Below are positions 4,976 through 53,417 of a stretch of 54,854 nucleotides of DNA, piece after piece. This stretch comes from a virus (Duplodnaviria; Caudoviricetes), in IMG/VR virus record IMGVR_UViG_3300048066_000293, positions 1 to 54,854 of that record. One strand, written 5' to 3'. Numbering within the stretch: the stretch's first letter is position 1; each line of letters opens with the position of its first letter. The notes below the pieces were generated by a model that was not told the DNA's origin, made no database searches, and saw nothing but the letters and a program-made list of their open reading frames with translations. The position numbers and the translations under genes are program-made.

Positions 4976-5115
4976 TATAAAACTCCAATCATCACGGTTG
5001 GTTGCAGCATCGCAGCTAACCATATCAGCAAACCTCCTGCAACAGCAAAGATGCTGCTGAGGATGCCCGTTTGCCAAAGTATTAATACCAAAAGAACTTT
5101 AAGGAGTGTTCTCAC
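4975..5115 (-). CDS. Small membrane protein, 46 aa (VRTLLKVLLVLILW...)
   Basis: Hand-translated; GTGA overlap with the upstream stop and TAATG overlap with the downstream start. Confidence 0.65.
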   Translation of the reverse strand: MRTLLKVLLVLILWQTGILSSIFAVAGGLLIWLAAMLQPTVMIGVL

Positions 5116-5303
5116 GCGAACATCTCCTCCCAAGCATCTGCTGTGATGCCTGTCTTGAAAAACTCGCGGTCGTCCGCGCTCAGTTGGGGGAATGCATTTT
5201 GGAGCAGCGCACCTGCTTCGTAAGCAGCAACTTGCTCTGGAGTAATATCCAGATCCATTGTGTTGACTTCACCGTTGAAAGGATTAGTACGTGTAATAAG
5301 CAT
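5112..5303 (-). CDS. Hypothetical early protein
   Basis: 63 aa (LLQNAFPQLSADDREFFKTGIT); own promoter. Confidence 0.8.
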   Translation of the reverse strand: MLITRTNPFNGEVNTMDLDITPEQVAAYEAGALLQNAFPQLSADDREFFKTGITADAWEEMFA

Positions 5304-5384
5304 GATGTTCCCTCTTTGATTGCCCTAACTGTTATAAACAGTATAACAGGGGTTAACGCAATTGTCAACCCCTATTATTAAGTT

Positions 5385-5630
5385 TTATGAAAAAACTTTA
5401 GCTCGTGAGCCGTTGACGTCACGTGCTGACACTGCATATCGTGCAGTACCTTTTGAGCTTGTGTCAACTCGGACGTTAAGTCCTGCTGAACGCAGTTCGC
5501 TCATTCGAGCAGCCAACTTCTGAATGCCGAATCGCGCATTCGCATCTGCTGCTGTCAAAGTCTTGCCTGTTCCACGTAGGTACGTTTCAAGGAAAGCCTT
5601 TTGATTAGTCTTAATAGTAGTAAATGACAT
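5385..5630 (-). CDS. Winged helix-turn-helix DNA-binding protein
   Basis: LT..DA..RFGI.KLAARMSELR..G pattern of phage wHTH (HTH_39-like); canonical GGAG SD. Confidence 0.75.
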   Translation of the reverse strand: MSFTTIKTNQKAFLETYLRGTGKTLTAADANARFGIQKLAARMSELRSAGLNVRVDTSSKGTARYAVSARDVNGSRAKVFS

Positions 5631-5749
5631 ATGTCTTTCTCCGTTTGCCTAAGTTTAAGTTTTAACAGTCTTTCTCTAACTGTTATATACAGTATAGCAC
5701 CTTCTGTGCTTTTGTCAACCCCTAATTGCATCTTTTTTGCAATTAATTT

Positions 5750-5836
5750 TGGTGCCTCCACCCAGACTCGAACTGGGACGCCATTACTAGCGAGAGATTT
5801 TAAGTCTCTTGTGTCTACCTATTCCACCATGGAGGC
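5750..5836 (-). tRNA. tRNA-Leu (TAA)
   Basis: GCCTCCATGGTGGAATAGGTAGACACAAGAGACTTAAAATCTCT...GTTCGAGTCTGGGTGGAGGCACCA; long variable arm; encoded CCA. Confidence 0.95.
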
Positions 5837-5840
5837 TAAT

Positions 5841-5917
5841 TGGCCTGCCCTGCAGGATTCGAACCTGCGACCCACAGCTTAGAAGGCTGTTGCTCTATCC
5901 AGCTGAGCTAAGGGCAG
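5841..5917 (-). tRNA. tRNA-Arg (TCT)
   Basis: CTGCCCTTAGCTCAGCTGGATAGAGCAACAGCCTTCTAAGCTGT...GGTTCGAATCCTGCAGGGCAGGCCA. Confidence 0.95.
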
Positions 5918-6082
5918 TTAGAAGTGTTCCTCCTGCTCTAAGTGACGCTCATACTCATCAGCTTGTGTTTTATAGTTGTTGAGCATGGTGTCCAGCTCTC
6001 TGCTGAACGTTGGTGAACATGCTGAGCCCGCTAGCCGCTTGAGGCGTTCGAGATTGTCGATGAAATCTAGCAGATCAATCAT
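5918..6082 (-). CDS. Hypothetical protein, 54 aa (MIDLLDFIDNLERL...)
   Basis: Hand-translated; TAATG coupling; stop codon abuts the tRNA-Arg 5' end. Confidence 0.6.
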   Translation of the reverse strand: MIDLLDFIDNLERLKRLAGSACSPTFSRELDTMLNNYKTQADEYERHLEQEEHF

Positions 6083-6276
6083 TACTGCACCCACACATGG
6101 TTAAACTTTGCGGGGTAGTTGGAGCAGTTGAATTGCTCGTCTGTGTAGTTAACGACCTTGACACACTGGTCTGTGCTGTAGCTGAAGTGTACATCTGGTA
6201 TCTTCAATGCTTCATTACCTGCATATGCTGCCAATGCAACCACTCCTGCTACTACTGCGCCTGTTAAATATTTCAT
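6082..6276 (-). CDS. Small exported or membrane-anchored protein
   Basis: N-terminal hydrophobic helix; two Cys; GAGGGC at 6282-6287. Confidence 0.75.
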   Translation of the reverse strand: MKYLTGAVVAGVVALAAYAGNEALKIPDVHFSYSTDQCVKVVNYTDEQFNCSNYPAKFNHVWVQ

Positions 6277-6317
6277 GTTCTGCCCTCTGTTTCCTAACTG
6301 TTATATACAGTATATGG

Positions 6318-6755
6318 TCAGTTGAACTCTTTGTCAACCACTTTTGGGTCAATATCTTGAAATAATTTCATGCCTAGGAAGTCCTGTTTGAGGATCTCTA
6401 GCATACGAACAGCTTCTTGTTGAGCTTCGCTGATGGCATCATCTACCATATCTTCTACTTGATCTTGCCCATCGTTTGCCAGCCACTTGGCAGGACTCTC
6501 ACTTACGATAGAGCCTAGATAGCTCTCGCCCATGACCTTGCCGTCATACTTGGCTTGGACTCTACAGATCATGTGCTGCCAAAAGCCTGACTCCAAGTTC
6601 TCGATCAGCTCTGGATAGTAGTCTGCATCTGTATCAAACAGGAGATCCAGCTGCGTATCGTCTGGTGCGAACGCAATCTCAACAATGAACTGATCTCGAT
6701 CGAACTGTTCTTCTACTTGATAGTTCGAGTTGTTTTCAAAAAAGGTATGTGTCAT
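6318..6755 (-). CDS. Acidic hypothetical protein
   Basis: 145-aa ORF; TAATG coupling. Confidence 0.75.
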   Translation of the reverse strand: MTHTFFENNSNYQVEEQFDRDQFIVEIAFAPDDTQLDLLFDTDADYYPELIENLESGFWQHMICRVQAKYDGKVMGESYLGSIVSESPAKWLANDGQDQVEDMVDDAISEAQQEAVRMLEILKQDFLGMKLFQDIDPKVVDKEFN

Positions 6756-6967
6756 TAAGCAAACTCTTCTTCCTGAGCTGATTCAATCAAGCTCGCTAGG
6801 GTTGTATCATAAGGATTAGAACTAGTACCAAACTCAAATGCACCGTAGGCTTCGCCTTGATCGTGCAAACTGGGACAGTTCTCTTGGAAAATTTCAGCAG
6901 CTTCTGCACCCAGTGCTGCCAGTTCTTCTTGGATCTGCTCCAAGCGTTGCATCATTTCATTATTCAT
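6755..6967 (-). CDS. Acidic hypothetical protein (start MNNEMMQ)
   Basis: GGAG before ATG 6967; overlaps the upstream stop. Confidence 0.7.
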   Translation of the reverse strand: MNNEMMQRLEQIQEELAALGAEAAEIFQENCPSLHDQGEAYGAFEFGTSSNPYDTTLASLIESAQEEEFA

Positions 6968-7175
6968 ATGACTCTCCAAAGTCTGCCCATTCCTGCTCCC
7001 AGGTAGGTTGCCCATCATCTTCGTCTTCGAAGAATCGCTCACTCAACTCGTTTGAGTCAAGCATGTCTTCAACATCATCGTTGCTCATATACTTGAGCGC
7101 CATAGTCAGCAGCTCTTCTGCTGATACCATACCGTTCTCAACAAGCTCTAATGCGATATCTCTGTAGTTTGCCAT
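6960..7175 (-). CDS. Acidic hypothetical early protein
   Basis: 71 aa ending DGQPTWEQEWADFGE; GAGGGC at 7184-7189. Confidence 0.8.
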   Translation of the reverse strand: MANYRDIALELVENGMVSAEELLTMALKYMSNDDVEDMLDSNELSERFFEDEDDGQPTWEQEWADFGESYE

Positions 7176-7247
7176 TTGCGTTTGCCCTCGCTTTGTTTAA
7201 CTATACATACACTATAACACCACTTGACGGTGCTGTCAACCCCTAAT

Positions 7248-7448
7248 TTAAATTAATTTCTCATACACAGCTTCACGAACGGCTGTGTCAGTTGCTTCCT
7301 CAAAGCCTTCCGCATGTCCCAGCTTGATCAGCTCGTGTTCTGCCCATTCCCAAACACGCTCGAATGAATCGAACTTGCGTAGTGCAACCCCTGCCTCAAC
7401 AATGCGGTGAACCAGTTCGTTGCCTTCTTTTGTAAACATCTCGTACAT
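7248..7448 (-). CDS. Hypothetical early protein
   Basis: 66 aa; own promoter; GAGGGC at 7453-7458. Confidence 0.8.
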   Translation of the reverse strand: MYEMFTKEGNELVHRIVEAGVALRKFDSFERVWEWAEHELIKLGHAEGFEEATDTAVREAVYEKLI

Positions 7449-7549
7449 ATTAGCCCTCTTCTTTATTGTTTAACTGTATACAGTATACAGTCTAATTAGG
7501 GGTTTGTCAACCCCTAATGTTAAAAAAGATTCCCTTGCAGATCAATGAC

Positions 7550-8089
7550 TTACATGTTTGGTGATAAATCAGTTAGATCTTCATCTTCTTCGTAATCTGC
7601 AAGCTGTTCATCTAGAGCAAACTCGTCTACGAGATACTCTGGAATCATGTTGCGAATAGTGTCTGAAGTTGCACTATCATACTCGTAATGGTCATCAGCA
7701 CCTTCTGAGTCCCAATAACCAACGAAGCACATGCCACTCTCGTGATAGTAGAGTTCAATGTAGCACGAGTCCCAGTCGTCTGCTAGACTGCTGAATGCTT
7801 CAATAGGCGGAGCCCATGCAGTATCGAACCAGCCAGTGATCTCAGCTGTGCCGTCACCATTGTCTACATACTCTAGGTGGACTTCAGGATCCCACTTGGT
7901 GCCCCAGTTGGTAACGCACCAGTCGTACCAGTTAGGAGTATCGCTAGGAGCCGTTGTGCCTTCTAGCTCTGCTGGCATAGGACAGATTGCTTGCAACAGT
8001 CCTTCGCCTGAGTCTACTACATCTTTGAGCTCTGACAGCGACTCAACAGCGCCGCGGATTGTGATTGTGTTGTTGCACCAATTAGGCAT
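7550..8089 (-). CDS. DUF1281/Api92-like ferredoxin-fold protein
   Basis: MPNWCNN start, WYDWCVTNWGTKWD, FDTAWAPP. Confidence 0.8.
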   Translation of the reverse strand: MPNWCNNTITIRGAVESLSELKDVVDSGEGLLQAICPMPAELEGTTAPSDTPNWYDWCVTNWGTKWDPEVHLEYVDNGDGTAEITGWFDTAWAPPIEAFSSLADDWDSCYIELYYHESGMCFVGYWDSEGADDHYEYDSATSDTIRNMIPEYLVDEFALDEQLADYEEDEDLTDLSPNM

Positions 8090-8537
8090 GATCTAAACCC
8101 TCCACTCGAACGTCTAAGCAGTCAAAGATTGGAAAGCCATTCTTGTCTTGGCCTACATGATAGCGGTCATGCACGATCCAACCGCTGGCTGTGTGCAAGT
8201 AAAAGAACTCGCAACCTGAGTCTGTGTAGTAGTCAACAAACTCGCCTACAGTGTCAAACTCAACTGCTTCTGTGTTTGACTCTCCTCTGTCACGTCCGTA
8301 GAAGATAATAACACCTTCTTCGGGTGTGTTGAAGCTGTGTGTCTTGACTGTTGGAAATACATTTGGAGCGATGATACTCTGATCGCCTAGCTCTACCATC
8401 TGTGCAATCTTGCGAGCCTCTTGGTAGTGCTGTTCCAGCATCACGCCTGTGTATGCAGGGTAGCCATCGTAGTGTGAATATTTTGCTCGGATCTTGCCTT
8501 CTGGAGTCTTGTAACCTATTGCGGAACGTGTTCCCAT
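8082..8537 (-). CDS. Conserved phage early protein (MGTRS...HYDGYP type)
   Basis: MGTRSAIG and YSHYDGYP motifs; GAGGGC at 8545-8550. Confidence 0.8.
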   Translation of the reverse strand: MGTRSAIGYKTPEGKIRAKYSHYDGYPAYTGVMLEQHYQEARKIAQMVELGDQSIIAPNVFPTVKTHSFNTPEEGVIIFYGRDRGESNTEAVEFDTVGEFVDYYTDSGCEFFYLHTASGWIVHDRYHVGQDKNGFPIFDCLDVRVEGLDHA

Positions 8538-8611
8538 GATATATGCCCTCTTGCTTTGTTTAACTTACTAATACACTATAACACCGAATGTGCTATGTGT
8601 CAACCCCTAAT

Positions 8612-8833
8612 TTAGTCTTTATCTAAAAAAGGTGCTTCTTCGATTGTTACTACATATGCCTTGCCGTTGCGGTCATGCACAGTAATAGTCTTCTTTGGTG
8701 ACACAAACCAACCGCCTACAGGATCTAGATCTGATTTGATCATCCCTGCTTCTGCTATGATCCCATCTGGGTCTGGCGCAGCAATAGCTTTTTTGATAGT
8801 GTCTGCGATCTTATCACAATATGCTAGTTTCAT
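8612..8833 (-). CDS. Hypothetical early protein (start MKLAYCD)
   Basis: GAGGGC at 8838-8843 precedes ATG 8833. Confidence 0.75.
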   Translation of the reverse strand: MKLAYCDKIADTIKKAIAAPDPDGIIAEAGMIKSDLDPVGGWFVSPKKTITVHDRNGKAYVVTIEEAPFLDKD

Positions 8834-8872
8834 CTTTGCCCTCATTTCCTAACTGTTATATACAGTATACGA

Positions 8873-9079
8873 TCAACTGTAGGTTTTGTCAACCTCTTTT
8901 TTGTGTTTTTTGAAACTTTTACGTAAGTCATTGATATTGTTGCGATAGTACTGTTCGAACGTATAGGGCTGCTCTTGCCCTATACTGTGATACTCATCTC
9001 GGTTCTCATAGTACTTGTTGGTGACGAACGCTCTGAACAGACTTGGTTTGAATGGATACATGCTGTGTCCGTGACTCAT
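8873..9079 (-). CDS. Hypothetical protein
   Basis: 68 aa; TAATG coupling. Confidence 0.65.
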   Translation of the reverse strand: MSHGHSMYPFKPSLFRAFVTNKYYENRDEYHSIGQEQPYTFEQYYRNNINDLRKSFKKHKKEVDKTYS

Positions 9080-9411
9080 TACATACTCCAGTAGGCTTCA
9101 GATGAAGGGCTCATATAATTAGGTGTGTTAACAGGCTCAACTATAGGCTTGCCTGACATCATGTTACTGGTAGTGCGACTCTTCTCAATTGACTTGTGGA
9201 AGTACTCTGCTTCTGCTATACCATAACGGAACACAGGATCATTCACAGTCTCCAGCAGGTCCGCTCTATAACGTTTGCTCATCCTAGTGAGCGCAGCTTT
9301 TGCAGCAGCCATTGTCTTGTAGCTCTGGCGGTGGTCTGGACGAACTTCACCTGTTCGTGTGTTCATCTTGCCCATAATGTAGGTGCTGGATTTTTCATAT
9401 ACGTAAAACAT
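9079..9411 (-). CDS. Hypothetical early protein
   Basis: 110 aa ending NTP..SPSSEAYWSM; GAGGGC at 9417-9422. Confidence 0.8.
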   Translation of the reverse strand: MFYVYEKSSTYIMGKMNTRTGEVRPDHRQSYKTMAAAKAALTRMSKRYRADLLETVNDPVFRYGIAEAEYFHKSIEKSRTTSNMMSGKPIVEPVNTPNYMSPSSEAYWSM

Positions 9412-9482
9412 TGTTTGCCCTCTCTGTTACGTTATATAAACACTATAGCACAAGTGCGCTATAGTGTCAAGTGTTTTTTAAA

Positions 9483-9752
9483 TTATTTGGCGCAATGTAC
9501 AATGCGCAAATAACGTGCATTAGGATGCACATTGTAAAATTTAGGTTTTGTTGCGTGTACTTTTGCAACGTTTAAGTTTAAAGCAATATGTTCCAAAACT
9601 TCATCTGTTAAATTTAAAGTTAAAAAACACAAGTTGCGCAAGTTGCTGTTAGCACATTTGTTTGTATAGCTGTGTGCGCTATACTTTACATTGTTTGCTT
9701 TTAAGATTTTGCGTACAATAGAACGTGCAGTTTTTGTTGTAGTGTTTTGCAT
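9483..9752 (-). CDS. Hypothetical early protein, compositionally constrained
   Basis: 89 aa with no Gly or Trp; own promoter; GAGGGC at 9758-9763. Confidence 0.7.
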   Translation of the reverse strand: MQNTTTKTARSIVRKILKANNVKYSAHSYTNKCANSNLRNLCFLTLNLTDEVLEHIALNLNVAKVHATKPKFYNVHPNARYLRIVHCAK

Positions 9753-9845
9753 GGGAAGCCCTCCATATGCATGTTACGTTATATAAACAATATAGCACAA
9801 GCAGCGCACTTTGTCAAGTAAAAAATGCGCTGCTGTGTAAGTTTT

Positions 9846-10106
9846 TTAACTTAGTGCTTCAAATGCTTCGTCTATAATATTATGCGCACTTGCGTCACTA
9901 GCAAAGCCCTCTTCTTCAGCAAAGTCTATGCTGCTGCTGTGCATAATAGTGTCTGTAAGCACACAAATGTTGTGCTGCAAAAATACTTGCACAAGTGCGT
10001 CTGCAGTTTGTACGTCATTTGCTACGCACACGTTATTAACATACACTTGCAGTGCAGCGTTTGCAGCGTTTAAAAATACGTAGTTTGTTTTTGTAGTAGT
10101 TTGCAT
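9846..10106 (-). CDS. Hypothetical early protein (start MQTTTKT), compositionally constrained
   Basis: GAGGGC at 10113-10118; no Pro or Trp and one Gly. Confidence 0.75.
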   Translation of the reverse strand: MQTTTKTNYVFLNAANAALQVYVNNVCVANDVQTADALVQVFLQHNICVLTDTIMHSSSIDFAEEEGFASDASAHNIIDEAFEALS

Positions 10107-10208
10107 ATTATAGCCCTCTATGCTAGTTAACTTATACATACACTATAGCACAAGTATACGTGTTTGTAAAGAGAAAAATGCACAGCTAACCTGTTGAAAA
10201 CATTGACA

Positions 10209-10354
10209 AATCAATCTTTTATTTGTGTTTAAAAACAATGACTTAGCAGCCCAGCTCAGAACTGTTCGAACATCGCCTCGCTACCCTGAGCCAAAAGAAC
10301 CCAACAATAACAATGAGTTAGCCGAAAAAAAACCCCAACGATATCAAAAGGTTA
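10209..10354 (+). promoter_or_regulatory. Cluster of four IHF-like boxes (WATCAANNNNTTR)
   Basis: AATCAATCTTTTA 10209, AAACAATGACTTA 10233, TAACAATGAGTTA 10308, TATCAAAAGGTTA 10342. Confidence 0.55.
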
Positions 10355-10487
10355 CAGATGTTCCCATATGCACACAGCAGCAGCAACGTTCAACGCTGCT
10401 AACCACACAAAGCTGATGGTGATGATTGCTAGTTCATACACAGTGAACCTCTCCTAAGCTCTACTAAGCTGCACAGTAGTAAGCCTC

Positions 10488-10757
10488 CTAGGCCACACTA
10501 AGCATACTAGCGGTCACACGCCAACGACCTGAAGTGGCAGTGTCCACAATCACAGTCTTGGGATTGACCTTGTGAACTGTGCCTTGAACCAAGACCCCGC
10601 CTCGACCGGTGAATGAAACTCGATCTCCCACTCGGATTGATCTCGCAGCACCTTTGGCCAGCGCAGTCCTACGCAGCTTTACAGCCTCAATTACTCGATC
10701 GATCTGGTCTGATGTCATAGTGTGAATAGCACTAACGGTAGTAGTAATATCTGTCAT
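10488..10757 (-). CDS. Small SH3/KOW-like protein (start MTDITT)
   Basis: IRVGDRVSF...GTVHKVNPKTV...WRV; AAGGGC leader. Confidence 0.75.
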   Translation of the reverse strand: MTDITTTVSAIHTMTSDQIDRVIEAVKLRRTALAKGAARSIRVGDRVSFTGRGGVLVQGTVHKVNPKTVIVDTATSGRWRVTASMLSVA

Positions 10758-10880
10758 GATGTTTTGCCCTTGTTTGTTTACGTTACATATACTACTATAA
10801 GCTCTAAACAACCATTTGTCAACCATTATTTTGAACGATTTTACGGTCAAGCGCAACTATACAAGAGTTACGGTGTAGCG

Positions 10881-11410
10881 TATATAGTAGTAGTAGGGAC
10901 TATAGTAGTAGACAGTATAGTAGTAGACCTCATTCCCTAGAGTGTGTGTAGTAGTATAGTAGTAGTAGAGGAGAGCGAGCAGCACGAGCGAATGGTCTTG
11001 TGCCTTGTGTACAGTAGTAGAGCTGTAGAGTAGGCTCAAAACCATGGTCACTAGCAGCGGGGCCTATTGCAAATGTGGCTTTTCTTGGGTGAATTTATCC
11101 TAAAAAATGTGGTTCTGGTGTAAAGAAACCATTGATTTCTTAACACTTTGGGTGTAACATAATAGGCGATTTCTTAACGGTTCTCGAGGTGAAGAGAGGC
11201 ATAGTTCAAATACTTTTGACCCTAAACCGTGGCATTACCATAAGTTTTTGTACGTACACTTTTGACTAGTTTCTTTACAGTGTGTGGAGATTAGTACAGT
11301 TTCTTTACAGTAGTAGACGCACACGTTAACAGCGGGGCCTTACTGTGCGCACAGTCTACTACTACTACTATAGTCATTACTACTACTACAGTCTACTCGA
11401 CTACTACTAT
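10881..11410. repeat. Non-coding region with TAG-rich left arm and CTA-rich right arm (imperfect inverted repeat) and internal direct repeats
   Basis: GACTATAGTAGTAGAC near 10898 versus GTCTACTACTACTACTATAGTC near 11354; CAGCGGGGCCT at 11055 and 11330; AGTTTCTTTACAGT at 11268 and 11298. Confidence 0.75.
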
Positions 11411-11625
11411 CACTGTGACTGTTGTTGTTGTGATTGTTCGCTTCTTTCTAGTAGTGTAGCAGCAGCTAAAGGTTCAATCCTATAGTTGCCTTTGTATTTT
11501 TTGTGTGCAAACTTATCTTGATAGTATTCCGCTATACGTTTGTTAGTAGTGGCTAGAACTACTACACCATCTACTACTAGTGCATAACCACTCTTGCCAA
11601 CATCTTCAATACACATACTACGCAT
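11410..11625 (-). CDS. Hypothetical protein (start MRSMCIE)
   Basis: TAAATA at 11631-11636, 5 nt before ATG 11625. Confidence 0.55.
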   Translation of the reverse strand: MRSMCIEDVGKSGYALVVDGVVVLATTNKRIAEYYQDKFAHKKYKGNYRIEPLAAATLLERSEQSQQQQSQ

Positions 11626-11690
11626 ATACATATTTATTCGGTGTTTTGTGTAAATACAATTATATACATACATAACACGAGGGCTATAGT

Positions 11691-11795
11691 ATGATACAAC
11701 TACAAACCAAATCGTTTGCGAGAGACTTTGCGGTATACTGTTCAGTGGGTTTCAACATTGGACTTGTGATAGGATTATTTCTCTACGTGTTCTAA
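11691..11795 (+). CDS. 34-aa single-TM peptide (MIQLQTKSFARDFAVY...)
   Basis: Hand-translated; GAGGGC at 11679-11684; TAAATA at 11651. Confidence 0.55.
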   Translation: MIQLQTKSFARDFAVYCSVGFNIGLVIGLFLYVF

Positions 11796-11833
11796 AAATT
11801 TTTTTAGAACGCTTCGCGCAGGTAAATATTTGC

Positions 11834-12655
11834 ATGAAGCAGCACCTATTAGTTGGAGGGGATTCATTTGCTGAGTTTCCTAGAGGCACTACAGATCCTA
11901 GAACACTAGAACGAGGTCGTCACGATGATCCTGTGCGCTCTTGGGATGGTTCAACACTGCATTGGTGTGAACAATGGGCAGCTCGTCACGATGTGAACGC
12001 ACACTCAGTTGGTTGGGGAGGCGCAGACAACACAGCAGCAGTCAACATGGTCACACGCGAACTCATGGGCTCAACTGCATACACACACTGTGTTTATTTT
12101 CTAACAGATCCCAACAGAACCTACAAGCGCAACACCAGTCATCTCACTAAAGGAGATCGACACTTTGACAAGCGAGACTATGTCTCTAGACGTTGGCAAG
12201 TCGGCTACAATTGGGATCACACCAATTGGCCTACAGCAATTGAATATCCTGAGGATGAAATGCCCTTGTGCGTGGGCAACACAGCAGCAAGCCTACGTTT
12301 CAACTCAATTCACAACAAAAAGTCAGCACCTTGGGAATGGATCAAGTACAGCATGAACCTAACACCTACACCTCAGCCTCTACAAAACACTGTGGCACAG
12401 ATTGCACTACTGAATTCACAGTGTGCAGCTCGTGGCATCAAGTTTATGGTCACAAGTGGGTTTTCATGGCCTAGAGCATTTGAAACGTGGCGCGACTCAG
12501 AATGTTATCCGCAATTTGCAAAGTTTGACTTTCAAGACCAAGTTCGTGTGAACCCAAAGACAGGATGGAAGTTGCGTTCACACTATACGCATTCAGAACA
12601 CACACAAATACTCAACTACCTAGAGTCACAAGGTCTAGATGGGTGGCTTACTTAG
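11834..12655 (+). CDS. SGNH/GDSL-hydrolase-like protein
   Basis: LVGGDSF near the N-terminus, GWGGADN, C-terminal SHY..H. Confidence 0.6.
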   Translation: MKQHLLVGGDSFAEFPRGTTDPRTLERGRHDDPVRSWDGSTLHWCEQWAARHDVNAHSVGWGGADNTAAVNMVTRELMGSTAYTHCVYFLTDPNRTYKRNTSHLTKGDRHFDKRDYVSRRWQVGYNWDHTNWPTAIEYPEDEMPLCVGNTAASLRFNSIHNKKSAPWEWIKYSMNLTPTPQPLQNTVAQIALLNSQCAARGIKFMVTSGFSWPRAFETWRDSECYPQFAKFDFQDQVRVNPKTGWKLRSHYTHSEHTQILNYLESQGLDGWLT

Positions 12656-13013
12656 AGTCTTTTGGGTCTGAGTCAGCATCAATCACACGTATCTTTAGTC
12701 CAGGCAACTGAGGAACTTCGTCAGGATCTGGGTAGTAGTCTGCATAGGGATTTGTGCCTGTAAATGTTACACTTTCTACAACAGTTTCACCACTTTCTTC
12801 GTCTTCTCTGCGAATCATCATGGTGCGTTCAATTTGAAAGTATTCTGCTATTAGATCACACATAGCCCATATGTCGTCTGCACCCTGTTTGGTGCCCTGT
12901 AGTTCAGCTACGCCCGCAGCAATGTCCAATAGATCTCCAACAGCGTATTTGACTACACCTTCTACATCATTTGGATCAAGCTCAGGCAAATTGTCATCAT
13001 TGTTGCTGTTCAT
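12648..13013 (-). CDS. Acidic hypothetical protein
   Basis: 121-aa ORF. Confidence 0.7.
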   Translation of the reverse strand: MNSNNDDNLPELDPNDVEGVVKYAVGDLLDIAAGVAELQGTKQGADDIWAMCDLIAEYFQIERTMMIRREDEESGETVVESVTFTGTNPYADYYPDPDEVPQLPGLKIRVIDADSDPKDSK

Positions 13014-13287
13014 TGTCTACCCACTCCACTGTGTCAATGTCCCATATATTTTCTCTATCAACTACAAATTCAAATTGTGTAGCTGTGTCTACTAGTCTTA
13101 CTCGGCCGTTTTCAAGATCTCTTATTTGAATAACACCGATTGACTCGTACACTCCGGGTTTGCCTGGATGGCTTTGACCCAATTGTAGATCTTTTGCACG
13201 AACAGGTGTGCCGTCCGTGTCTAAGAATGTTGTTGTTTTAAAACGACATCCCCAACTCTCTCCAGGTTTACAGTTTTCTAATTCCAT
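12997..13287 (-). CDS. Hypothetical protein
   Basis: 96 aa; GAGG SD; TAAGTA upstream. Confidence 0.75.
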   Translation of the reverse strand: MELENCKPGESWGCRFKTTTFLDTDGTPVRAKDLQLGQSHPGKPGVYESIGVIQIRDLENGRVRLVDTATQFEFVVDRENIWDIDTVEWVDNEQQQ

Positions 13288-13369
13288 GTAGGTATTCCTC
13301 TTTATGTGCTAATACTTATCACCGAACAACACATGATAAATATTTTTGTTAATCAACAGGAGATCTCCC

Positions 13370-13591
13370 ATGAGTACACTAAAAAACATTAGCCTTAACC
13401 TTGAGTTGGGCCAAACTATCCTAGTAGGGAAAAATCGTGAGCAAGCACAAATCACAAAAATAGAATTCCATGAAAAAAGTGGGGAGATTGCGATCAACAC
13501 AACCAAGGGTCCTAGGAAGGCTCTTACATTTAGTCTATTCAGCGAATCAGATGAATTACAGCTAGAAAATCCAGCTGACCGTTATCGCTAG
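13370..13591 (+). CDS. Hypothetical protein (start MSTLKN)
   Basis: AGGAG SD; TAAATA upstream. Confidence 0.7.
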   Translation: MSTLKNISLNLELGQTILVGKNREQAQITKIEFHEKSGEIAINTTKGPRKALTFSLFSESDELQLENPADRYR

Positions 13592-13604
13592 ACTAAATAC
13601 TTTT

Positions 13605-13859
13605 ATGAGAATAGATGAAGTCCTTACCAGTGAACAAGACCTAGAAGATTGGGCAGCAAGTAGAAGCCTGTGTAAAAGCTCAAAGCCAAACTCGGCTCTG
13701 GGCGCCAGCGCACTCGCTTCATGCAAGTCGCAAGGCTACCGCAGGCGTGAAGGTGGCAAAAGTCATAAACTAGGAAAGTCTAAGAGTAGTAGAGTAAAAG
13801 TCGGCGGCAAGAAGATCAAGGGCAAGAAGTACGGCGGCCCATTACCGGATTGGAGTTAA
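13605..13859 (+). CDS. Small basic putative internal head protein
   Basis: MRIDEV N-terminus; K/S/G-rich body; TAAATA 5 nt upstream. Confidence 0.7.
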   Translation: MRIDEVLTSEQDLEDWAASRSLCKSSKPNSALGASALASCKSQGYRRREGGKSHKLGKSKSSRVKVGGKKIKGKKYGGPLPDWS

Positions 13860-13863
13860 CAGA

Positions 13864-14397
13864 TTGCAGTTGATTACCGGTAGCCTTCTCGTAGCCCATC
13901 CAGTTCATGCAAAATATGAATCTGCTGAAACTGTAGTTTATATTACTGAAAGCACAGAACACAGCACAGTAGGACTAATTCTAAACAACCCTAGTACTGA
14001 AACAATGAAAACTGTAATGCGTGAAAACAATACAGAATGGGGCTGGAATCAAAAAATCTATAATGGCGGACAGTATAATAGAACTGCTATGGTAATGTTG
14101 CATTCAGACAATTGGTATAGTCGTAATACAATTCAAGTCAACAATGATCTAAGTATAAGCTCAGACGAACTTATGATAGACAAAATGGCAATGGGAGACT
14201 TTCCTGATTGGCATAAACTTTTTATTGGTTGCTCGGGTTGGTCACCAAGTGAACTAGAGCATCAAGTACGCAGACGCAAGCCCGAATGGTTAGTACTGCC
14301 ACACCCTACACGTAGTCTTATTGAATCAAACTCAAACGACTTATGGAACAAGGCAGTAGCTGAAATAAGCCAAGATCAAGTTAAAACTTTCTTTTAG
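13864..14397 (+). CDS. YqgE/AlgH (DUF179) family protein
   Basis: GSLLVAHP, GLILNNP, YNGG, FIGCSGWSPSELE..W, LW. Confidence 0.8.
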   Translation: MQLITGSLLVAHPVHAKYESAETVVYITESTEHSTVGLILNNPSTETMKTVMRENNTEWGWNQKIYNGGQYNRTAMVMLHSDNWYSRNTIQVNNDLSISSDELMIDKMAMGDFPDWHKLFIGCSGWSPSELEHQVRRRKPEWLVLPHPTRSLIESNSNDLWNKAVAEISQDQVKTFF

Positions 14398-16531: not shown

Positions 16532-16937
16532 ACCAAGCAATCTTTTTACCTGCAGAAACTCTACGTTCTTGTTCTTCAACACTGCCAGGATAGCGCCAAG
16601 CCCATATAGCAACCAGTGCCATAAAGCCTCCGCTCCACATAACAGCTTTGATGTTACCTGTAGTAAACCACAAAAACGCAAGAGAACTACTCATTACTAG
16701 TACCATTGCGTATTTGCCCCATGTAGGGAATACTTTCTTCTCAACCCAATTAGTTAGGAACGGACCAAAGTATTTGTGATTGTATAACCATTTGTGCATT
16801 CTAGGCGAACTTTTTGCAAAACAATATGCTGCGAACACTAAGAATACGGAAAACGGAATGCCCGGCACGACAACGCCAATGTAGGCCATTCCTAAGGATA
16901 GAAAGCCTAAGCCCATCCACATATATTTTTTAACCAT
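16524..16937 (-). CDS. YbaN/DUF454 inner-membrane protein
   Basis: G.IG.VVPG.P...F...[18 protein letters not shown]. Confidence 0.85.
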
Positions 16938-18117
16938 TAATTACCTCTGTTAATGCTTTAATTAAATCCTCAATCATACCATCAGTATGATACGGCGTGG
17001 GAGCAAAGCGTAGTCTCTCAGTACCTTCGGCTACTGTAGGATAATTAATAGGTTGCACATATATCCCATAGTCATTAATAAGTGAATCACTTACAGCTTT
17101 ACATGTTTTTGCTTCACCTATGAGTAAAGGAACAATATGAGTAGTAGAGCAATCCATAGGATCTAAACCAGCTTTGGTCATCCTATGCTTTAGTTTGCGA
17201 GCTCTTTCCTGATGCTGTTCCCTAAGTTCGTTATGATCTCGCAAGTATTTGATACTAGCAAGGGCACCAGCACAAGTCACAGGACTCATACTGGTTGTAA
17301 AAATAAAGCCTGAAGCTACAGAACGAATCGCATCTATGATGTCAGCGTCCGCTGCTATGTACCCGCCCTGTACTCCAAAGGCTTTGCCTAGCGTACCGTT
17401 TACGATATCCACATTATCCTGCAGGTTTAGTTTCTGTAAATAGCCTGCTCCTTGTTCTCCGTATAATCCTACGGCATGAACCTCATCAATGTATGTCATC
17501 GCCCCATACTGGTCTGCTAAGGTGCAAATATCGAGGATAGGCGACACATCTCCATCCATGCTATACACAGATTCGAACACAATACAAGGTGTTCCGGAAA
17601 CACTTTTTAGCTTATCCTCTAGGTCGTTCATATCATTGTGCTGCCATATGATCTTGTCAGCACCACTGTGTCTTATCCCTTGGATCAAAGATGCGTGATT
17701 ATTTGAATCACTTAAAAACACAATGTCGGGAATGATTTGTTTAAGAGCGACCAAACTCCATTCATTTGCAACATACGCACTAGAAAAGAGGAGCGCACTC
17801 TGCTTGCTATGCAAGTCAGCCAGCTCGTGTTCTAGTGCTACATGATAGTGTGAAGTGCCTCCTATGTTTCTGGTGCCTCCACTGCCAGCGCCTGTTTGAT
17901 CTAATGCAGTGTGCATTGCATCTATTACAATTTTATTCTGGCCCATTCCGAGGTAATCATTTGAGCACCAGTTTACAATCTCTTTGATTGCATACTTTCC
18001 GTACCAAATAGCTTTAGGAAACTTTCCGCGTTCTCTAAGAATGTCATTAAACACACGGTACTTGCCTTCCTGTTTTAACTGTGCAAGTACTTGTTGGAAT
18101 GGTTTTTTATCTATCAT
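16930..18117 (-). CDS. hemA: 5-aminolevulinate synthase (start MIDKKP)
   Basis: [32 protein letters not shown]-lysine motif GTLGKAFG. Confidence 0.95.
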
Positions 18118-18154
18118 GTGCATATTTAACTAAATATTGTATAGGAGTTTACAG

Positions 18155-22058: not shown

Positions 22059-22679
22059 TTAGTACTTGTCAACCTTTACATTGCCGTATGTAGCAATATA
22101 ATGATTAACATCTCTATGTCCTGCTTCGTCATCTCTAACAGCTAGAATTACATCACGCAACCTAGCATCATCCGCTAAGTTCCAATACGTAATTGCAATT
22201 CTAGGTGCAGGAACATTCTCAATGCGCCCTTCGTCAAGCTCATTAAGATATTCTGTGTACGAATACACAGCTTCTTCTTCAAAGTAACCTACTATTCTGT
22301 GTGCAGTAGATGGCGATATAAGAAATACTATAAAGTATACATGCCAGAATATAACTTGTGCAACCAGTATGAGCAGTCTTTCAAACCAATTAGGCTTTGC
22401 AATTTCAATGAACGTCATTAAATGCATACGTTCATTTTCTGCTTCTGCTAGTAGGGTACGGATTAGTGGCCCATATCCAGGGCGTAGTTTACGCAAACTT
22501 CTAAGATGCGTCCACATGCCGCCTACCATTCCTGGCACTGCGGCTACTGTTTCTAATACAACTGCTCTATGTCCATAACGCTTGCGGAAGAACGTATCCG
22601 CAAACCATCGCATACTTTTAGTAAAGCCGTATGCAAAATAGTCAGACGTAGAGGTTGGCTTGTAGTGGACCAGCGTCAT
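22059..22679 (-). CDS. aox: Alternative oxidase (di-iron quinol oxidase)
   Basis: [42 protein letters not shown]. Confidence 0.95.
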
Positions 22680-41798: not shown

Positions 41799-42887
41799 AT
41801 GGCTGCAAGACCCGGCAATATTTTTGAAGAAGCGACCGTTGAAGGTACTGGCCAAACCACGGTTAATCATACAGACATTGATACTGATCCGGGTAGTAGT
41901 CCTCCGGATCACGTTCATATTGACCATGATTTAGCACACCAAGCATGTCTTAGAGAAATAGCATCTATATTTGAAGATATACAATATGATATGCGTATCA
42001 TTGCAGATAGATTAGATACTGACACTAAAGGCGTGTATATGAGACAAGCAGATACCGTAGCTAACAACCCTGCAAATATTGCACAACATGCAATGAAAAT
42101 GGAAGCTCTTAAGAGTTCAGGGCAGTTAGATCAAATTAACGGAGAACTTGCAAATCCTACAAATTGGGTAAATGTAAATCCTACTACATATGCATCTGTG
42201 CAATCAGCAGGCGCTGCTATTGGCGGGTATCTAGGCGGAGTAGGAACTACACAAAACAAACCTACAGGTTACGGAGGAAAAGAAGTTGTTACAACTCCAG
42301 AAGGAACTATTGTTTCACTTCCTGATGCACCGTTTAGTGCGTTTTCAGTTAAGACAGGAAGTGCTACTGGCAAAGTTAAATATGGCAATGCTGGTACTTT
42401 TAGGTCTTTGCCTATACAACAAGAATTATACAGTATTATAGAAGGTGCAGCAGCAACAGCAAAAGTTGATGTTTTAATTACTAGCGGTGGACAAGTTCCA
42501 AAGAACCAAGGCGGAGTTAATCGTAAAAATAGAACAGGGTCTAACAGACACGACAAAGGCTACGGTGCTGATGTAGTACTCTACTTAGATAAGATGGGTG
42601 GCAAAGAACTATATGCAACTAATAAAGATGACCTTGAAATAATGTTAAATTTTGTCCAGGCTTGTGCGAATGCAGGCTGTACTGGTATTGGAATAGGACG
42701 AGGTTATATGAAAAATAGAGACATACATGTTGATATTGCTTGGAAGGGACAACAAGCCGGAAAAATCACAGGAATTCTTTCAAACAGATATTGGGGCGGA
42801 GGCGATTCAGAAGGACTCCCAACTAAAACAATTTATGCTCCGTTATACCTAGCAGACATAATGAAAACAAGGGATAATATAGGCTAA
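41799..42887 (+). CDS. Protein with a C-terminal peptidase M15 (Hedgehog/DD-peptidase fold) domain
   Basis: ITSG, SNRHDKGYGADV, GIGIG...IHVD. Confidence 0.75.
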   Translation: MAARPGNIFEEATVEGTGQTTVNHTDIDTDPGSSPPDHVHIDHDLAHQACLREIASIFEDIQYDMRIIADRLDTDTKGVYMRQADTVANNPANIAQHAMKMEALKSSGQLDQINGELANPTNWVNVNPTTYASVQSAGAAIGGYLGGVGTTQNKPTGYGGKEVVTTPEGTIVSLPDAPFSAFSVKTGSATGKVKYGNAGTFRSLPIQQELYSIIEGAAATAKVDVLITSGGQVPKNQGGVNRKNRTGSNRHDKGYGADVVLYLDKMGGKELYATNKDDLEIMLNFVQACANAGCTGIGIGRGYMKNRDIHVDIAWKGQQAGKITGILSNRYWGGGDSEGLPTKTIYAPLYLADIMKTRDNIG

Positions 42888-45800
42888 TGTCAGATCCGTA
42901 TAAGCATTTAGATTTAACACCAGAATATAATCGTATCATCACTGCTACTACTAATATTAGAGATGAAATTAGATTAATGCGCAAACGTTCAGAAAATCCA
43001 GACACAGGATTAGTTGCTAGTTGGGTAATGAACGATTTAGAAAAAGCACAGTTGGCAGTTTCATTAAGTGGTGCAAGTGGAAATAAAGCTGAAGAAGTAA
43101 GGAAACTAATAGAAACACCTGAGCCTTTGAACGGAGGTATAGGTGATCCTGCAGAAATGACAGGCGAAGACGGTATTCTTGGCGATGTTGATAAACAAAG
43201 AGAATATTATCTTGCAGCATTTGATCAAGAAATAGATCCTGAAGAAACAAGAGCTTTAATACGAGTAGACGGTAAATTTTATTGGGAAGCAGATGGCGGC
43301 GTATCTGAAGACGAAGGAGAAGTAGGACCTATTAAGCAAACTACTCCTTATGCTCTAGGAGAGTATATTGGTTATAAAAGTATGGATGCCCAGATTGGAT
43401 ATTCTACAGCACAACCTTCAAATGCTAAAAAAGGCCCTGGTAGAGTTGTAGATATTGCAGACAAAACACTACCTAACAAAAGATGGGCAGCACCTAGACC
43501 AGAATACAAATCATCATTAGATATTCCAAATCTTTTAGCTGATCTAATTAATCCAATTACTGGAGCTATTGTAGCAAAAAGTATTCTACAGCAAAAGCAA
43601 GAAGCTGTTAATGCAGCAGCATCACCTGCATCTGCTAATCCTTTACAATCTCTAGGTGCAACGGCTGCTAAAGAACTTGTTAAACAGTTGCCAGACTTTG
43701 CTGCAATGACTACTGATAGAGAATTTGGCCTTGGAAGCGGCTACGGTTTAGTAGCAGATGCTCCTGCATCTTTTAGAGGTGCACCTGACATGCTTCCATT
43801 TGTTGGGAGTACTATCGCTGATGAAGGCGGAGTACCTAGTTGGGTAGAATTTCCACAGTATCAATACGAAGGATACGGTGGAGGTCCATATCGTGTTTGT
43901 GAGTTTCCAAACTTCATGGGTCAAGGTCATACTGGTCCAATGAATTTTAATGCTGGAGTGCCAGTACCATATAACGGCAAAGTGTATAGTTATCCAATTC
44001 CTTTAGATGGCCAATTTGTTAATCACCGTTTTATACAACCTATATCACCTCCTGATAGTAATCCTGTAACCACTATGAGTTTAATCAATTTCAACCATGA
44101 CGCAAGCTATATTGCTTGGTTTAGTGCTACACCCGGAGGAGCCCCACACCCTTCAGCAGATGGTGTACCATTAGTTATGTTATTAGGACGAGTTGAGTTT
44201 ACATTGTCATACTACCAAGCGTTTAGTTTGACTGACAGAGATTTTGGACCTAAGAATATAGTTTTTCCAATTATAACAAAAACCTACTATTTTAACGTTG
44301 CACTTGTAAAAAATGAAACAGTACAACGTATTTGTAATTCTAGGGTAGGCGGTGTTCCGTCCCCTGCACCAAGAGCTCCTCGACCAGAAGAATTAGTTAG
44401 TTTTGATCCTACTGAAATATATGATGTCCGCGGGGATAGAATACCTATTATTGGTGGTAGCCAGAGTCATCCAAACAATAATCCTCCGCAACCAGAATCA
44501 GGCCCTAACTATGTTATAATGTTAATGGCTCCGAGAAGTAATCGGGCTAGAGAATCTCAGGGTCAGCCGTACAATGGAGTTTATGATCTTATGACATTCC
44601 AAGAATATGTTGATTTCTACGAAGTTGATACATCACCTGAGCTTCCTAGTGCGCCGCCGCCTACAGATGAATCCGGACAATCTCCATTTACAGATTTAAA
44701 AACATTAGTAGGTTCACCGGCACTTGGACAATTTACAAACGTTGCTTATAATGAAGAGATTATAGTACTAGCTGACGAAGCATTTCCAGATAGAGCGTTT
44801 ACAGCAATAAGAATTAATGAAAGTGAACTAGCTGATTTCTTTGGTCTAGAAACTTTTGAAGATGAAAACCTCTACCGTATGGACGACCTAAGTATTATTG
44901 ACAGCAAGTTTACAGCTTTTGGCGAAGCAAGATCATTTTTTGCAAAAAACTTTATACAAGGAAGAAGACACAAGTATAAGTTGAAGTATGCTTCTAATGG
45001 TGAAACTCCTAGCACATGGAAGGAAGAGCAATTTCAAGGCGAGAGATATGTTTCTGCTACAGGTACTCCGTATCGGCTGTTCTTTATAGAAACACTAACA
45101 ACTCCAAAGGATGGATCAACACCATCTTATCAACAAATTAATGATATTAGTATGGAGGGTAGTGACGGAACTGGTCTTGGTCCTAGTAGCTACAATGGAG
45201 CATATGATCAGCTGCCTTTCCAAAGTGCTCCTAATCCGTTTAATTACACAATAGCAGATAAAGTGGCGTTTAGTGATCCTAGCTGGATTGTGGGCACAAA
45301 GCCTTTTAATGGCAATAGCATATATGCCACTGACATCGAGTATGACAATAGATTTTCTATACCATTTACTTTACCTTATGTTGTGCCTAGTGACCCAAGC
45401 AATAAAGACAATTTAGAAACATATGGAACATTTCAAATAGGTTCAAATAGAGCATTTGTAGGTAGCACTGCGACTGGGAATAGGTTTGTAGGTATAGCTT
45501 GGATTTCAGAAACTCCAGGAGGAACACCAATTGCAACACCAAATGGTTCTACTTATACAGCTTTTTCAGCAGATGCTGGCCGGTTTGAAAGACTTTACTG
45601 GAGTGGCGATCCGGGAGTTTTCTCTGGTGCGTATGGAGGTGATACTTGGACCAATATATTAAACGCTGGAATTTGTAATACTCCGGGTGGAGAACTAAGA
45701 TTCTTTAACACTGCTTGGGTTGACATCTCTCTATTTAATAATAACGTAATCCTAACTGACGGAATAAAAGCGCAGCCAGGTACAAGTACGTTTGAATCTT

Positions 45801-51911: not shown

Positions 51912-52151
51912 AGGTAGACAAATATATCAAACTGTGTTATAGTATAACATAACAATTAGGGAGATAGATATGACTACATTTGAAAAGATTGAATTTGTTG
52001 TTGGTTTATCGTGTTTAGGACTTCTCCTATCACTATAAGCGAATACTCACAAACGTAGTATTGCTTTTATATTTTTGGTGCATTGACGAAGATCCAGAAA
52101 TGTGTAGACTAAAAAAGAAAGGTGAACAAACTTCTACTATTGAAATAGAGG

Positions 52152-52182
52152 TTGACATCTAGTATTACTTATGTTATAAATA
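52152..52182 (+). promoter_or_regulatory. tmRNA promoter: sigma70 site overlapping a full TATAAATA late box
   Basis: TTGACA 52152-52157, N17, TATAAATA 52175-52182. Confidence 0.8.
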
Positions 52183-52186
52183 GTAT

Positions 52187-52571
52187 TGTAACGTTGAAGC
52201 AATTCAAACGGCATACAGGACCCGGGGGCGGTACCCGGCAGCTCCACCATAAGCACATTTGGAAACACAATGAAGACACGTATTAAAATGCAAGGCGGCG
52301 ATGAGTTTGATGCTCTAAGCAAGAAGGCTAAAAATTACTATCATTGGAAACCAGGTGAACGCAAGAAGATTAAGCGTGGTTATAACAAAAGACTTCGCAA
52401 GTGTGCTTATGATGGGGCTGAAATAGGATCGACTGGTGTTTAATAGGAGAGTGGAGTTGCCCGGATGTAAGCTCGGTTAACGCGAACAAACTTAATAATT
52501 GCAAACGCAAATTATTCATTAGCAGCCTAAGGGCAGCTACGAGGTAGTTAGACCTTGTTACCAAACATAGC
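52187..52571 (+). ncRNA. ssrA: Circularly permuted two-piece tmRNA (acceptor piece about 52187-52249; coding piece from 52414; tag ANANYSLAA)
   Basis: T-arm CCGGG-GGCGGTA-CCCGG then CAGCTCCACCA, upstream of GGGGCTGAAATAGGATCGAC; G3-U70 pair; tag frame 52501-52530; outer ends approximate. Confidence 0.95.
52270..52443 (+). CDS. 57-aa basic protein encoded in the tmRNA intervening segment
   Basis: MKTRIKMQGGDEFDALSKKAKNYYHWKPGERKKIKRGYNKRLRKCAYDGAEIGSTGV; hand-translated, below the ORF-track cutoff. Confidence 0.6.
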   Translation: MKTRIKMQGGDEFDALSKKAKNYYHWKPGERKKIKRGYNKRLRKCAYDGAEIGSTGV

Positions 52572-52600
52572 AGAAAAGCATCTTCGGATGCTTTTCTTTT
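52572..52600 (+). terminator. Intrinsic terminator after tmRNA
   Basis: AGAAAAGCATC-TTCG-GATGCTTTTCTTTT. Confidence 0.9.
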
Positions 52601-53208: not shown

Positions 53209-53417
53209 TACCTAAAGAAACAGCACAAAAAACAGCAGAACATACCTTCACAGGTTTTATGAACTGGACAAAATACACAGTATACGGCTCGCTTGCTTTT
53301 TTCTTAGCAGTAGCAAGTTGTAATTTTGGCGTAGAAGACGGACCTAATAGAACAGGTTCGCAGTATGACGGGAGTGCGTATGCTCCTATGAATCTTAACG
53401 TAAAGGATAACAAATGA
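53205..53417 (+). CDS. aa3-type cytochrome c oxidase subunit IV-like peptide (start MIPKE)
   Basis: AEHTFTGFMNW followed by a TM helix, resembling the E.TF.GF motif of alphaproteobacterial CoxIV. Confidence 0.5.
   Translation: MIPKETAQKTAEHTFTGFMNWTKYTVYGSLAFFLAVASCNFGVEDGPNRTGSQYDGSAYAPMNLNVKDNK

Follow-up and report, generated by a model that had tools for sequence, protein, structure and literature searches.

Why would a phage strip one class of dinucleotide from a single strand of a few small genes? The question is raised by IMG/VR virus record IMGVR_UViG_3300048066_000293 (Caudoviricetes), analyzed here over its complete length of 54,854 nt (the window), in which two adjacent leftward genes, here called gene A and gene B, occupy a stretch (9421-10170) whose plus strand is nearly or wholly devoid of GA and GG. 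Below, YC stands for TC or CC and GR for GA or GG; as both genes lie on the minus strand, plus-strand GR is sense-strand YC. What we find is a strand-wise purge of this one dinucleotide class, limited to autonomous early cassettes, a feature that is conserved, abundant in the sea, and larger than first described; our tentative reading is that the phage escapes an enzyme whose target is YC in single-stranded DNA or RNA, be it a deaminase, a nuclease, or an ADP-ribosyltransferase.

The run itself is real and far beyond chance. An original prediction, made from the letters of the sequence, held that each of some 75 plus-strand G between 9757 and 10170 is followed by C or T, and the exact count bears this out: these 414 nt hold 75 G, 38 of them in GC and 37 in GT, with no GA and no GG. 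The next longest GA/GG-free runs in the record measure 161 nt (9545-9705, in the same region) and then 128 nt or less. The predicted nine or so GA/GG between 9421 and 9756 were counted as 4 GA and 5 GG (alongside only 6 TC and 1 CC), and GCGC, TGCA, and ACGT, said to be abundant across 9421-10170, occur there 8, 14, and 9 times. Under a first-order Markov model of the sense strand, 416 nt without YC have a probability of P = 9e-13, or about 1e-7 when summed over all positions and both strands. The sense strand of gene B carries no YC among its 51 C, with 12 of its 13 GR unavoidable (Asp, Glu, and Gly codons); that of gene A carries 6 YC among 53 C and 4 GR among 37 G. In codon controls of 20,000 samples each, made either by recoding with genome codon usage or by shuffling synonymous codons within the gene, the absence of YC from gene B compares with 11.9 +/- 3.0 after recoding (0 samples as low) and with a mean of 3.2 after shuffling (fraction as low 0.004). 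As the shuffled gene still gains YC, its codon junctions must be arranged too. For gene A, recoding yields 16.1 YC (fraction as low 0.0002) and 11.1 GR (0.001).

Each gene is an autonomous expression cassette, consisting of a sigma70-type promoter, a leader with a Shine-Dalgarno site, a small ORF nearly always starting with MQ, and a 3' hairpin (Table 1). Between 10822 and 8575 lie six near-consensus promoters of this type, all directed leftward (TTGACA, 17 nt, TG-extended TATAGT), and a 69-nt promoter/leader module is repeated at 9419, 9766, and 10119. The YC-free run starts exactly at the -35 hexamer of the gene B promoter. In both genes a GAGGG-type Shine-Dalgarno site follows the promoter and conserved leader and precedes an ORF starting with MQ; this leader type is kept across cassettes, and that of gene B has no stable predicted fold, which leaves its Shine-Dalgarno site open. 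The 3' hairpin of gene B is made solely of YC- and GR-free words and encloses the -35 hexamer of the next promoter, and the relatives' counterparts of the 3' hairpins are canonical terminators with a hairpin and a T-run. The early expression assumed in the original prediction draws support from these promoters, which are such as early genes should have.

Table 1. Positions of the run, of the cassette elements of genes A and B, and of other features (window coordinates unless a relative is named)
Feature	Position	Strand	Details
GA/GG-free run (sense-strand YC-free run)	9756-10171	plus	416 nt
Gene B promoter	10142..10170	-	-35 TTTACA, 17-nt spacer, TG-extended -10 TATAGT; 10/12 consensus positions
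Gene B 5' leader	10107..10136	-	Shine-Dalgarno AGAGGG; aligned leaders of 26 promoters
Gene B ORF	9846..10106	-	86 aa
Gene B 3' hairpin	9775..9850	-	-22.9 kcal/mol, z -3.2
Gene A promoter	9789..9817	-	TTGACA, 17 nt, TG-extended TATATT; 11/12 consensus positions
Gene A ORF	9483..9752	-	89 aa
Gene A 3' hairpin	9425..9490	-	13-bp stem; -18.9 kcal/mol, z -5.5
Promoter overlapped by gene A hairpin	TTGACA 9470-9465, TATAGT 9447-9442	-	drives ordinary gene 9079-9411
tRNA-Leu(UAA) and tRNA-Arg(UCU)	5750-5917	-	adjacent
Permuted (two-piece) tmRNA	52136-52585	+	Rfam tmRNA_permuted 108.5 bits, alpha_tmRNA 86.8 bits
Alternative oxidase (AOX)	22059-22679	-	auxiliary metabolic gene; 270 bits
Plastocyanin/azurin-family protein	53414-53830	+	auxiliary metabolic gene
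Class I/II aminotransferase	16930-18123	-	auxiliary metabolic gene
AlgH-like protein	13864-14397	+	auxiliary metabolic gene
Deaminase-fold protein of relative L091	L091 1495-1809	-	105 aa; zinc motif HAE...PCxxC; PF00383, 29.9 bits; adjoins radical-SAM gene

The same state recurs in relatives of these genes. Close relatives of gene B (73-88% identity) are abundant, a metagenome scan having confirmed 381, of which 80 loci were kept for comparison; the fetched loci contain 87 homologous ORFs (78 distinct sequences). Cassette arrays are larger in relatives: the longest stretch of sense strand without YC measures 573 nt in the median of 84 related loci and reaches 1950 nt, and in one locus, L004, eight consecutive cassettes are affected. 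When 818 plus-strand ORFs, drawn from the window and 83 loci, were clustered into 204 families, the share of C found in YC (YC/C) proved bimodal: 12 families, including gene B's with its 87 members, lie at 0.00-0.06, and 31 other families among the 45 largest lie at 0.23-0.54. Two further families are nearly GR-free, namely gene A's (14 members) and that of a 116-aa basic protein (7 members); of the 14 cassette families, then, 12 have a clean sense strand. Ordinary YC content is seen in the gene B homologues of Methylophilales phage Melnitz and other viral contigs (35-41% identity), and gene B thus appears to be an old family that was later recoded to the YC-free state. The cassettes also come and go among strains: because RNA-library contigs join 9479 to 10127 and 9458 to 10151, at the promoter/leader repeats flanking genes A and B, related strains lack both cassettes, with the repeats serving as recombination points. 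These contigs lie on 5000-10800 with exact pieces (e.g., 9716-10063); they give neither strand, ends, nor level, and their lack of cover over 11020-14000 carries no meaning.

What exactly is being avoided? Over the 12 cassette families the dinucleotide odds ratios are 0.05 for both CC and TC, against 1.53 for AC, 2.01 for GC, 1.31 for TT, and 1.00 for CT, and C content falls only slightly (0.183 vs. 0.213). The object of avoidance is the context of cytosine and not cytosine itself: C is lost after a pyrimidine but kept after a purine, as in a deaminase-type footprint. Serine in two YC-free groups is encoded by AGY rather than TCN (619 vs. 20 and 242 vs. 4 codons), proline makes up 0.2% of residues in YC-free families vs. 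3.4% in ordinary ones, and the frequency with which a T- or C-ending codon is followed by a C-initial one is 0.00-0.01 in cassettes vs. 0.12-0.19 in ordinary genes. The rule extends to single sites, as shown by distinct variants within families set against the expectation from possible single changes: six YC-free families hold 83 YC-creating variants where about 478 are expected, as opposed to 579 observed vs. 480 expected in three ordinary families, and none of 168 variants in family 8 (33.6 expected) and one of 237 in family 16 creates a YC.

Noncoding parts obey it as well. The hairpins are composed of YC- and GR-free words, and in the promoters of the first cassette of an array, which follows an ordinary gene, the spacers, of which the 26 promoters have at least a dozen different ones, contain no YC among 86 C; the 40 nt upstream of those same promoters are ordinary (46 YC among 139 C), as are the spacers of ordinary promoters (214 among 581). 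Apart from the Shine-Dalgarno site and the GA within the -35 hexamer, the noncoding parts of cassettes are in fact clean on both strands. Since the rule holds at synonymous sites and codon junctions as well as in hairpins and promoter spacers, strong and continuing purifying selection acts here at the nucleotide level. It is difficult, then, to regard the composition as inherited and without function, whether from genes born de novo out of YC/GR-free repeats or from one past hypermutation event: repeated promoter/leader modules do flank the cassettes, and cassettes are gained and lost between strains (as in the join of 9479 to 10127), but the gene B family is old and its homologues elsewhere have ordinary composition, the state is shared by twelve unrelated families, and hundreds of later substitutions still avoid YC. 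We give this account almost no credence. A requirement for unstructured mRNA was likewise tried and rejected, as the predicted minimum free energy per nucleotide is -0.222 for native sequences and -0.226 for those recoded to ordinary codon usage, and the native form is the less stable one in 17 of 35 genes.

An agent with precisely this context preference is sunlight, as (6-4) photoproducts and UV-signature C-to-T changes occur at TC and CC, and surface-ocean phages might keep their first-needed genes free of UV-damage sites; the habitat is surface seawater, the avoided context is exactly YC, and TT and CT are tolerated. The lesions that block RNA polymerase, however, are those on the template strand, yet 12 of 14 families keep the nontemplate strand clean; C is retained and shifted to purine-C contexts, which indicates selection and not erosion; and adjacent early genes are unpurged. 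TC/CC-directed damage had been named in the original prediction as an alternative to its main proposal, and as a class it is the explanation favored here, its UV version being very improbable.

That main proposal was avoidance of restriction sites: the genes would be expressed before the DNA is protected, and a strand without GA or GG carries no palindrome containing GA/TC or GG/CC. The decisive observation concerns distance. In the YC-free families YC/C is 0.022, 0.019, 0.024, 0.036, and 0.023 where the nearest GR is 0-5, 6-10, 11-20, 21-40, and more than 40 nt away. The purge is thus equally strong at all distances, and the majority of the YC it removed cannot have belonged to a palindrome, which also leads us to reject any harm that needs YC and GR close together, such as palindromes or paired nicks. 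Outside the region, moreover, the relevant sites stand at expectation (GATC 198 vs. 180 expected, TCGA 78 vs. 78.5, CCGG 52 vs. 53), and all three have normal density in the neighboring early genes. Palindromic sites are therefore not the unit of selection. Within the cassettes TGCA, ACGT, GCGC, and GTAC are not avoided, and the gene A homologue of L004 contains a TCCGGA site. To be set against this are the record's largest gap free of GATC, GANTC, TCGA, CCGG, GGCC, and similar sites, which does fall here (9258-10256, 998 nt); the fact that either strand can be the clean one, as palindromes would permit; the promoter-to-hairpin autonomy of units that would still work on DNA fragments; and a set of sites avoided genome-wide (AAGCTT 0 observed vs. 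25 expected, GTGCAC 1 vs. 15.7, AGCGCT 0 vs. 10, GCTAGC 1 vs. 12.9), an avoidance that extends to the cassettes (GTGCAC 0 vs. 25.5 expected under YC-free synonymous recoding). On balance we hold restriction-site avoidance to be a quite improbable cause of the purge. The genome-wide avoidance of hexamer palindromes is restriction avoidance of the ordinary kind, a pointer to the enzymes of the host; ACGCGT (0 vs. 5.5) and GCATGC (5 vs. 16.4) are avoided in the same manner.

The second strand complicates the picture. The probability that a G-ending codon is followed by a purine-initial one is 0.20, 0.40, and 0.05 in three cassette groups vs. 0.59 in ordinary genes, and selection against new GR differs among families. 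Where YC is essentially zero (18 of 18 members of family 8 and 10 of 12 of family 16 have none), synonymous GR-creating variants occur at 0.89-1.0 of expectation; the ratio is 0.73, 0.63, 0.52, and 0.42 in families 13, 6, 0, and 3, and 0.05 and 0 in the two families with several YC. Both states are found in gene A's own family. Its member L024 (55% identical) and a distant homologue (L002 5230-5499) lack YC and Pro and contain Asp, Glu, Gly, and Trp, whereas the other 13 members are GR-free and have two conserved Pro; homologues of gene A thus switch between the YC-free and the GR-free state. Most simply put, at least one strand of every unit is kept YC-free, and indispensable amino acids choose the strand, the other strand being clean where the protein needs Pro but can spare Asp, Glu, Gly, and Trp. 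An antisense promoter for the GR-free genes is unsupported, with a weak plus-strand match at 9437-9465 and none by eye in L004. In the GR-free gene A homologue of L004 (3633-3815), the retained YC sit mostly in TCCT/CCT words (ATCCTA, TTCCTC, ATCCTG, TTCCTA, TTCCTC), and one CCTCT is the complement of AGAGG, the Shine-Dalgarno sequence of the gene itself; such pairing could serve translational self-regulation.

A rule that holds for one strand in ORFs and for both in promoters and leaders could in principle reflect depletion of CRISPR protospacer-adjacent motifs (PAMs). The PAMs of many type I systems are 5'-YC (CC, TTC), and those of many type II systems are 3'-GR; a duplex without YC on both strands would be untargetable, and loss of YC from the sense strand would remove the orientation that blocks elongation. 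The dinucleotide-level specificity and the complementarity of YC and GR agree with such a reading. Acidic cassettes, however, retain at least 30 GR per gene and so remain targetable, cleavage elsewhere in the genome would be just as lethal, and the gene A family has the reverse polarity, all of which make PAM depletion a poor candidate, on a par with restriction.

The most concrete rival is evasion of Rho, a termination factor that recognizes 5'-YC dinucleotides of nascent RNA through its primary binding sites (PMC12360218), such that a transcript without YC would offer no loading site and escape premature termination. In 12 of the 14 cassette families it is indeed the RNA-sense strand that is purged, and an RNA-level target would explain why only some genes are affected. 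The host, moreover, is probably an alphaproteobacterium, judging from the alpha-type permuted tmRNA (tag peptide ANANYSLAA, predicted with ARAGORN), and alphaproteobacteria possess Rho. Loading, however, needs several YC in a stretch of unstructured RNA, so that the first one or two should be near-neutral, yet families 8 and 16 shed even single synonymous YC; Rho does not account for the loss of GR from codon junctions, spacers, and the gene A family; the gene A mRNA of L004 and L009, with its many YC, is C-rich with UCCU-type words and would suit Rho; and the units are short, with strong Shine-Dalgarno sites and hairpins of their own. Among the traits of a transcript without Rho utilization (rut) sites, absence of YC from the RNA strand is thus found, whereas a cumulative effect, with the last few YC near-neutral and G-richness neutral or favored, is not. 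We therefore consider Rho evasion improbable, though less so than the alternatives already discussed.

We favor a damaging enzyme because selection strikes single sites, synonymous ones included, and C is kept in purine-C contexts. In this proposal, which we put forward with reserve, the purge would leave nothing to act on for an enzyme that recognizes YC in single-stranded form, either on mRNA or on DNA exposed in strongly transcribed units. Candidates would be a polynucleotide cytosine deaminase with a preference for pyrimidine at -1, a dC/C-specific endonuclease, a base ADP-ribosyltransferase, or possibly a nickase, and the first-made proteins, plausibly counter-defense factors, would still be produced while the enzyme is active. 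The array may then be pictured as a shuffling set of first-expressed genes rewritten without YC on at least one strand, at a cost in Pro or else in Asp, Glu, Gly, and Trp. That the effector is an undescribed one, belonging to marine bacteria or to the phage itself, that it damages every pyrimidine-cytosine step, and that the early genes were rewritten in answer is a suggestion we make with equal caution. Attack at dinucleotide level has precedents: GA in single-stranded RNA is modified by CmdT, an anti-phage toxin (PMC11618068), APOBEC3 enzymes, which have a preference for 5'-TC, leave footprints of depletion in viruses (PMC7449416, PMC4999249), DddA has a strict TC context (PMC9463067), and Cas13 orthologues differ in their dinucleotide cleavage preference (PMC11417378).

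Several points weigh against this proposal. The neighboring early genes behind near-identical promoters are unpurged, so that vulnerability would have to be gene-specific. If the target were DNA, shielding about 1% of a genome of at least some 300 kb would gain little unless the cassettes are hot spots or enter first; if it were RNA, the spacers, which are not transcribed by their own promoter, would need upstream read-through or frequent reshuffling of cassettes. Selection against GR rises with the residual YC of a family, as if YC on both strands of a unit, at any distance, were harmful, a pattern that simple attack on one strand does not account for, and the gene A family purges GR more than YC, where a pure sense-strand or RNA target predicts otherwise. 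Nor did an anti-phage YC-specific deaminase or nuclease surface in the literature listings. One relative, the 275-kb contig L091, carries genes for a dCMP deaminase of the ordinary type and for a 105-aa protein of cytidine-deaminase fold that has no solved relative; neither gene occurs in the window or in a second large relative, and no cytosine C5-methyltransferase was found in the window or two large relatives. The relatives carry one thymidylate-synthase-like gene and one N6/N4 methyltransferase, which speak neither for nor against base modification. A cause outside all the explanations listed here is nearly as probable as the proposal itself.

The proteins themselves are, as predicted from the missing dinucleotides, almost devoid of Gly, Pro, and Trp. 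That of gene B, read from the ATG at 10106 (MQTTTKT...), is acidic, with one Gly and no Pro or Trp; its net charge of -10 was computed over a 97-aa ORF from an upstream in-frame ATG at 10139, which likely lies before the transcription start. That of gene A (MQNTTTKT...) is basic (+11), with two Pro and no Gly or Trp. Both are predicted to fold with confidence (pLDDT 90.4 for gene B and 91.2 for gene A, the latter as alpha-beta-beta-alpha-beta-beta), with no significant structural neighbor (best Foldseek PDB E-values 0.27 and 0.078, respectively) and no matching PHROG or Pfam family. A protein-cluster atlas returned only hypothetical viral clusters, the lead for gene A, LPD29, being weak (score 0.87, carried by 28% of members), and cultured phages offered no protein match for gene A. 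Neither protein resembles, by sequence or fold, characterized anti-restriction or anti-defense inhibitors such as Ocr, ArdA, or Acr.

As for the phage, the window is a fragment, with an estimated completeness of about 16% (CheckV-type estimate), of an uncultured marine jumbo phage, since its close relatives lie on contigs of 256-347 kb. Near-identical DNA is present in at least 14 seawater DNA runs (counted at 0.92 or more of sampled words) and partly in 6 RNA-library runs; among cultured phages it has no DNA-level relative, searches of the phage collection having returned tRNA matches only. Besides the auxiliary metabolic genes of Table 1, the window encodes a ribonucleotide reductase, an exonuclease, an HNH endonuclease, and a 1647-aa ORF (42887-47830, plus strand) with no PHROG, Pfam, or cultured-phage relative. 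The two tRNAs read TTA and AGA, Leu and Arg codons without an initial C. YC-free coding needs such codons after pyrimidine-ending ones, AGA being itself a GR codon; the match may be a coincidence, as both tRNAs are common in AT-rich phages. TAGTAG/CTACTA repeats of 15-18 nt form inverted arrays at 10875-10985 and 11346-11410, with 27-nt arms that are 93% complementary and 450 nt apart. They translate as poly-Tyr "ORFs" and sit between the leftward early genes and the rightward genes, 0.7-1.2 kb upstream of the cassettes; a similar array lies upstream of the L004 cassettes (1325-1671), and the arrays may mark an origin, a terminus, or an injection-stop region.

That viruses hide from host factors by avoiding motifs is already known; here the loss is strong enough to strip proline from a dozen protein families, and its presence in hundreds of seawater contigs points to a strong and common oceanic selective agent with the specificity 5'-YC-3'. 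It marks some 14 families of small early proteins as candidates for counter-defense and, should the proposal hold, would make the cassette array both a map of effector specificity and a catalogue of new anti-defense proteins; YC-free coding is also a simple design rule. No precedent for near-absolute, strand-wise loss of a dinucleotide class over kilobases in phages surfaced in the literature listings and abstracts.

Among known systems, the depletion of CpG against ZAP in vertebrate RNA viruses and the resistance of ACA-less mRNAs to MazF share with the cassettes a synonymous rewriting that drops a word read by a host factor or RNase; they differ in host, word, and scale, and the MazF case is an engineered one. 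Palindrome avoidance in phages is likewise avoidance of sequence, possibly in early DNA, and this genome practices it on AAGCTT, GTGCAC, AGCGCT, and GCTAGC. The first-step-transfer DNA of T5 is site-free. In the cassettes, however, the unit is a one-strand dinucleotide, independent of any partner, and the matching 4-mers are not avoided elsewhere in the genome. To our knowledge there is no toxin of the CmdT type that targets UC or CC. CmdTAC does resemble the inferred agent in targeting a dinucleotide on single-stranded nucleic acid, and GA is also purged in the gene A family, but it ADP-ribosylates GA in mRNA, whereas the main purge here is of UC and CC (PMC11618068); a GA-less phage transcript as an escape from CmdTAC was not described in the literature listings. 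The rut sites of Rho, too, are YC dimers read on RNA (PMC12360218), yet their function is cooperative and C-rich, whereas in the phage cassettes single YC are counter-selected and GR is purged as well. A further likeness is the APOBEC3 footprint of papilloma-, polyoma-, and other human viruses, where 5'-pyrimidine-C is depleted and the depletion is attributed to deaminase evasion (PMC4999249, PMC7449416): in those viruses it is partial and genome- or region-wide, whereas in the phage cassettes it is near-total, strand-wise, directed at TC and CC together, and confined to discrete units.

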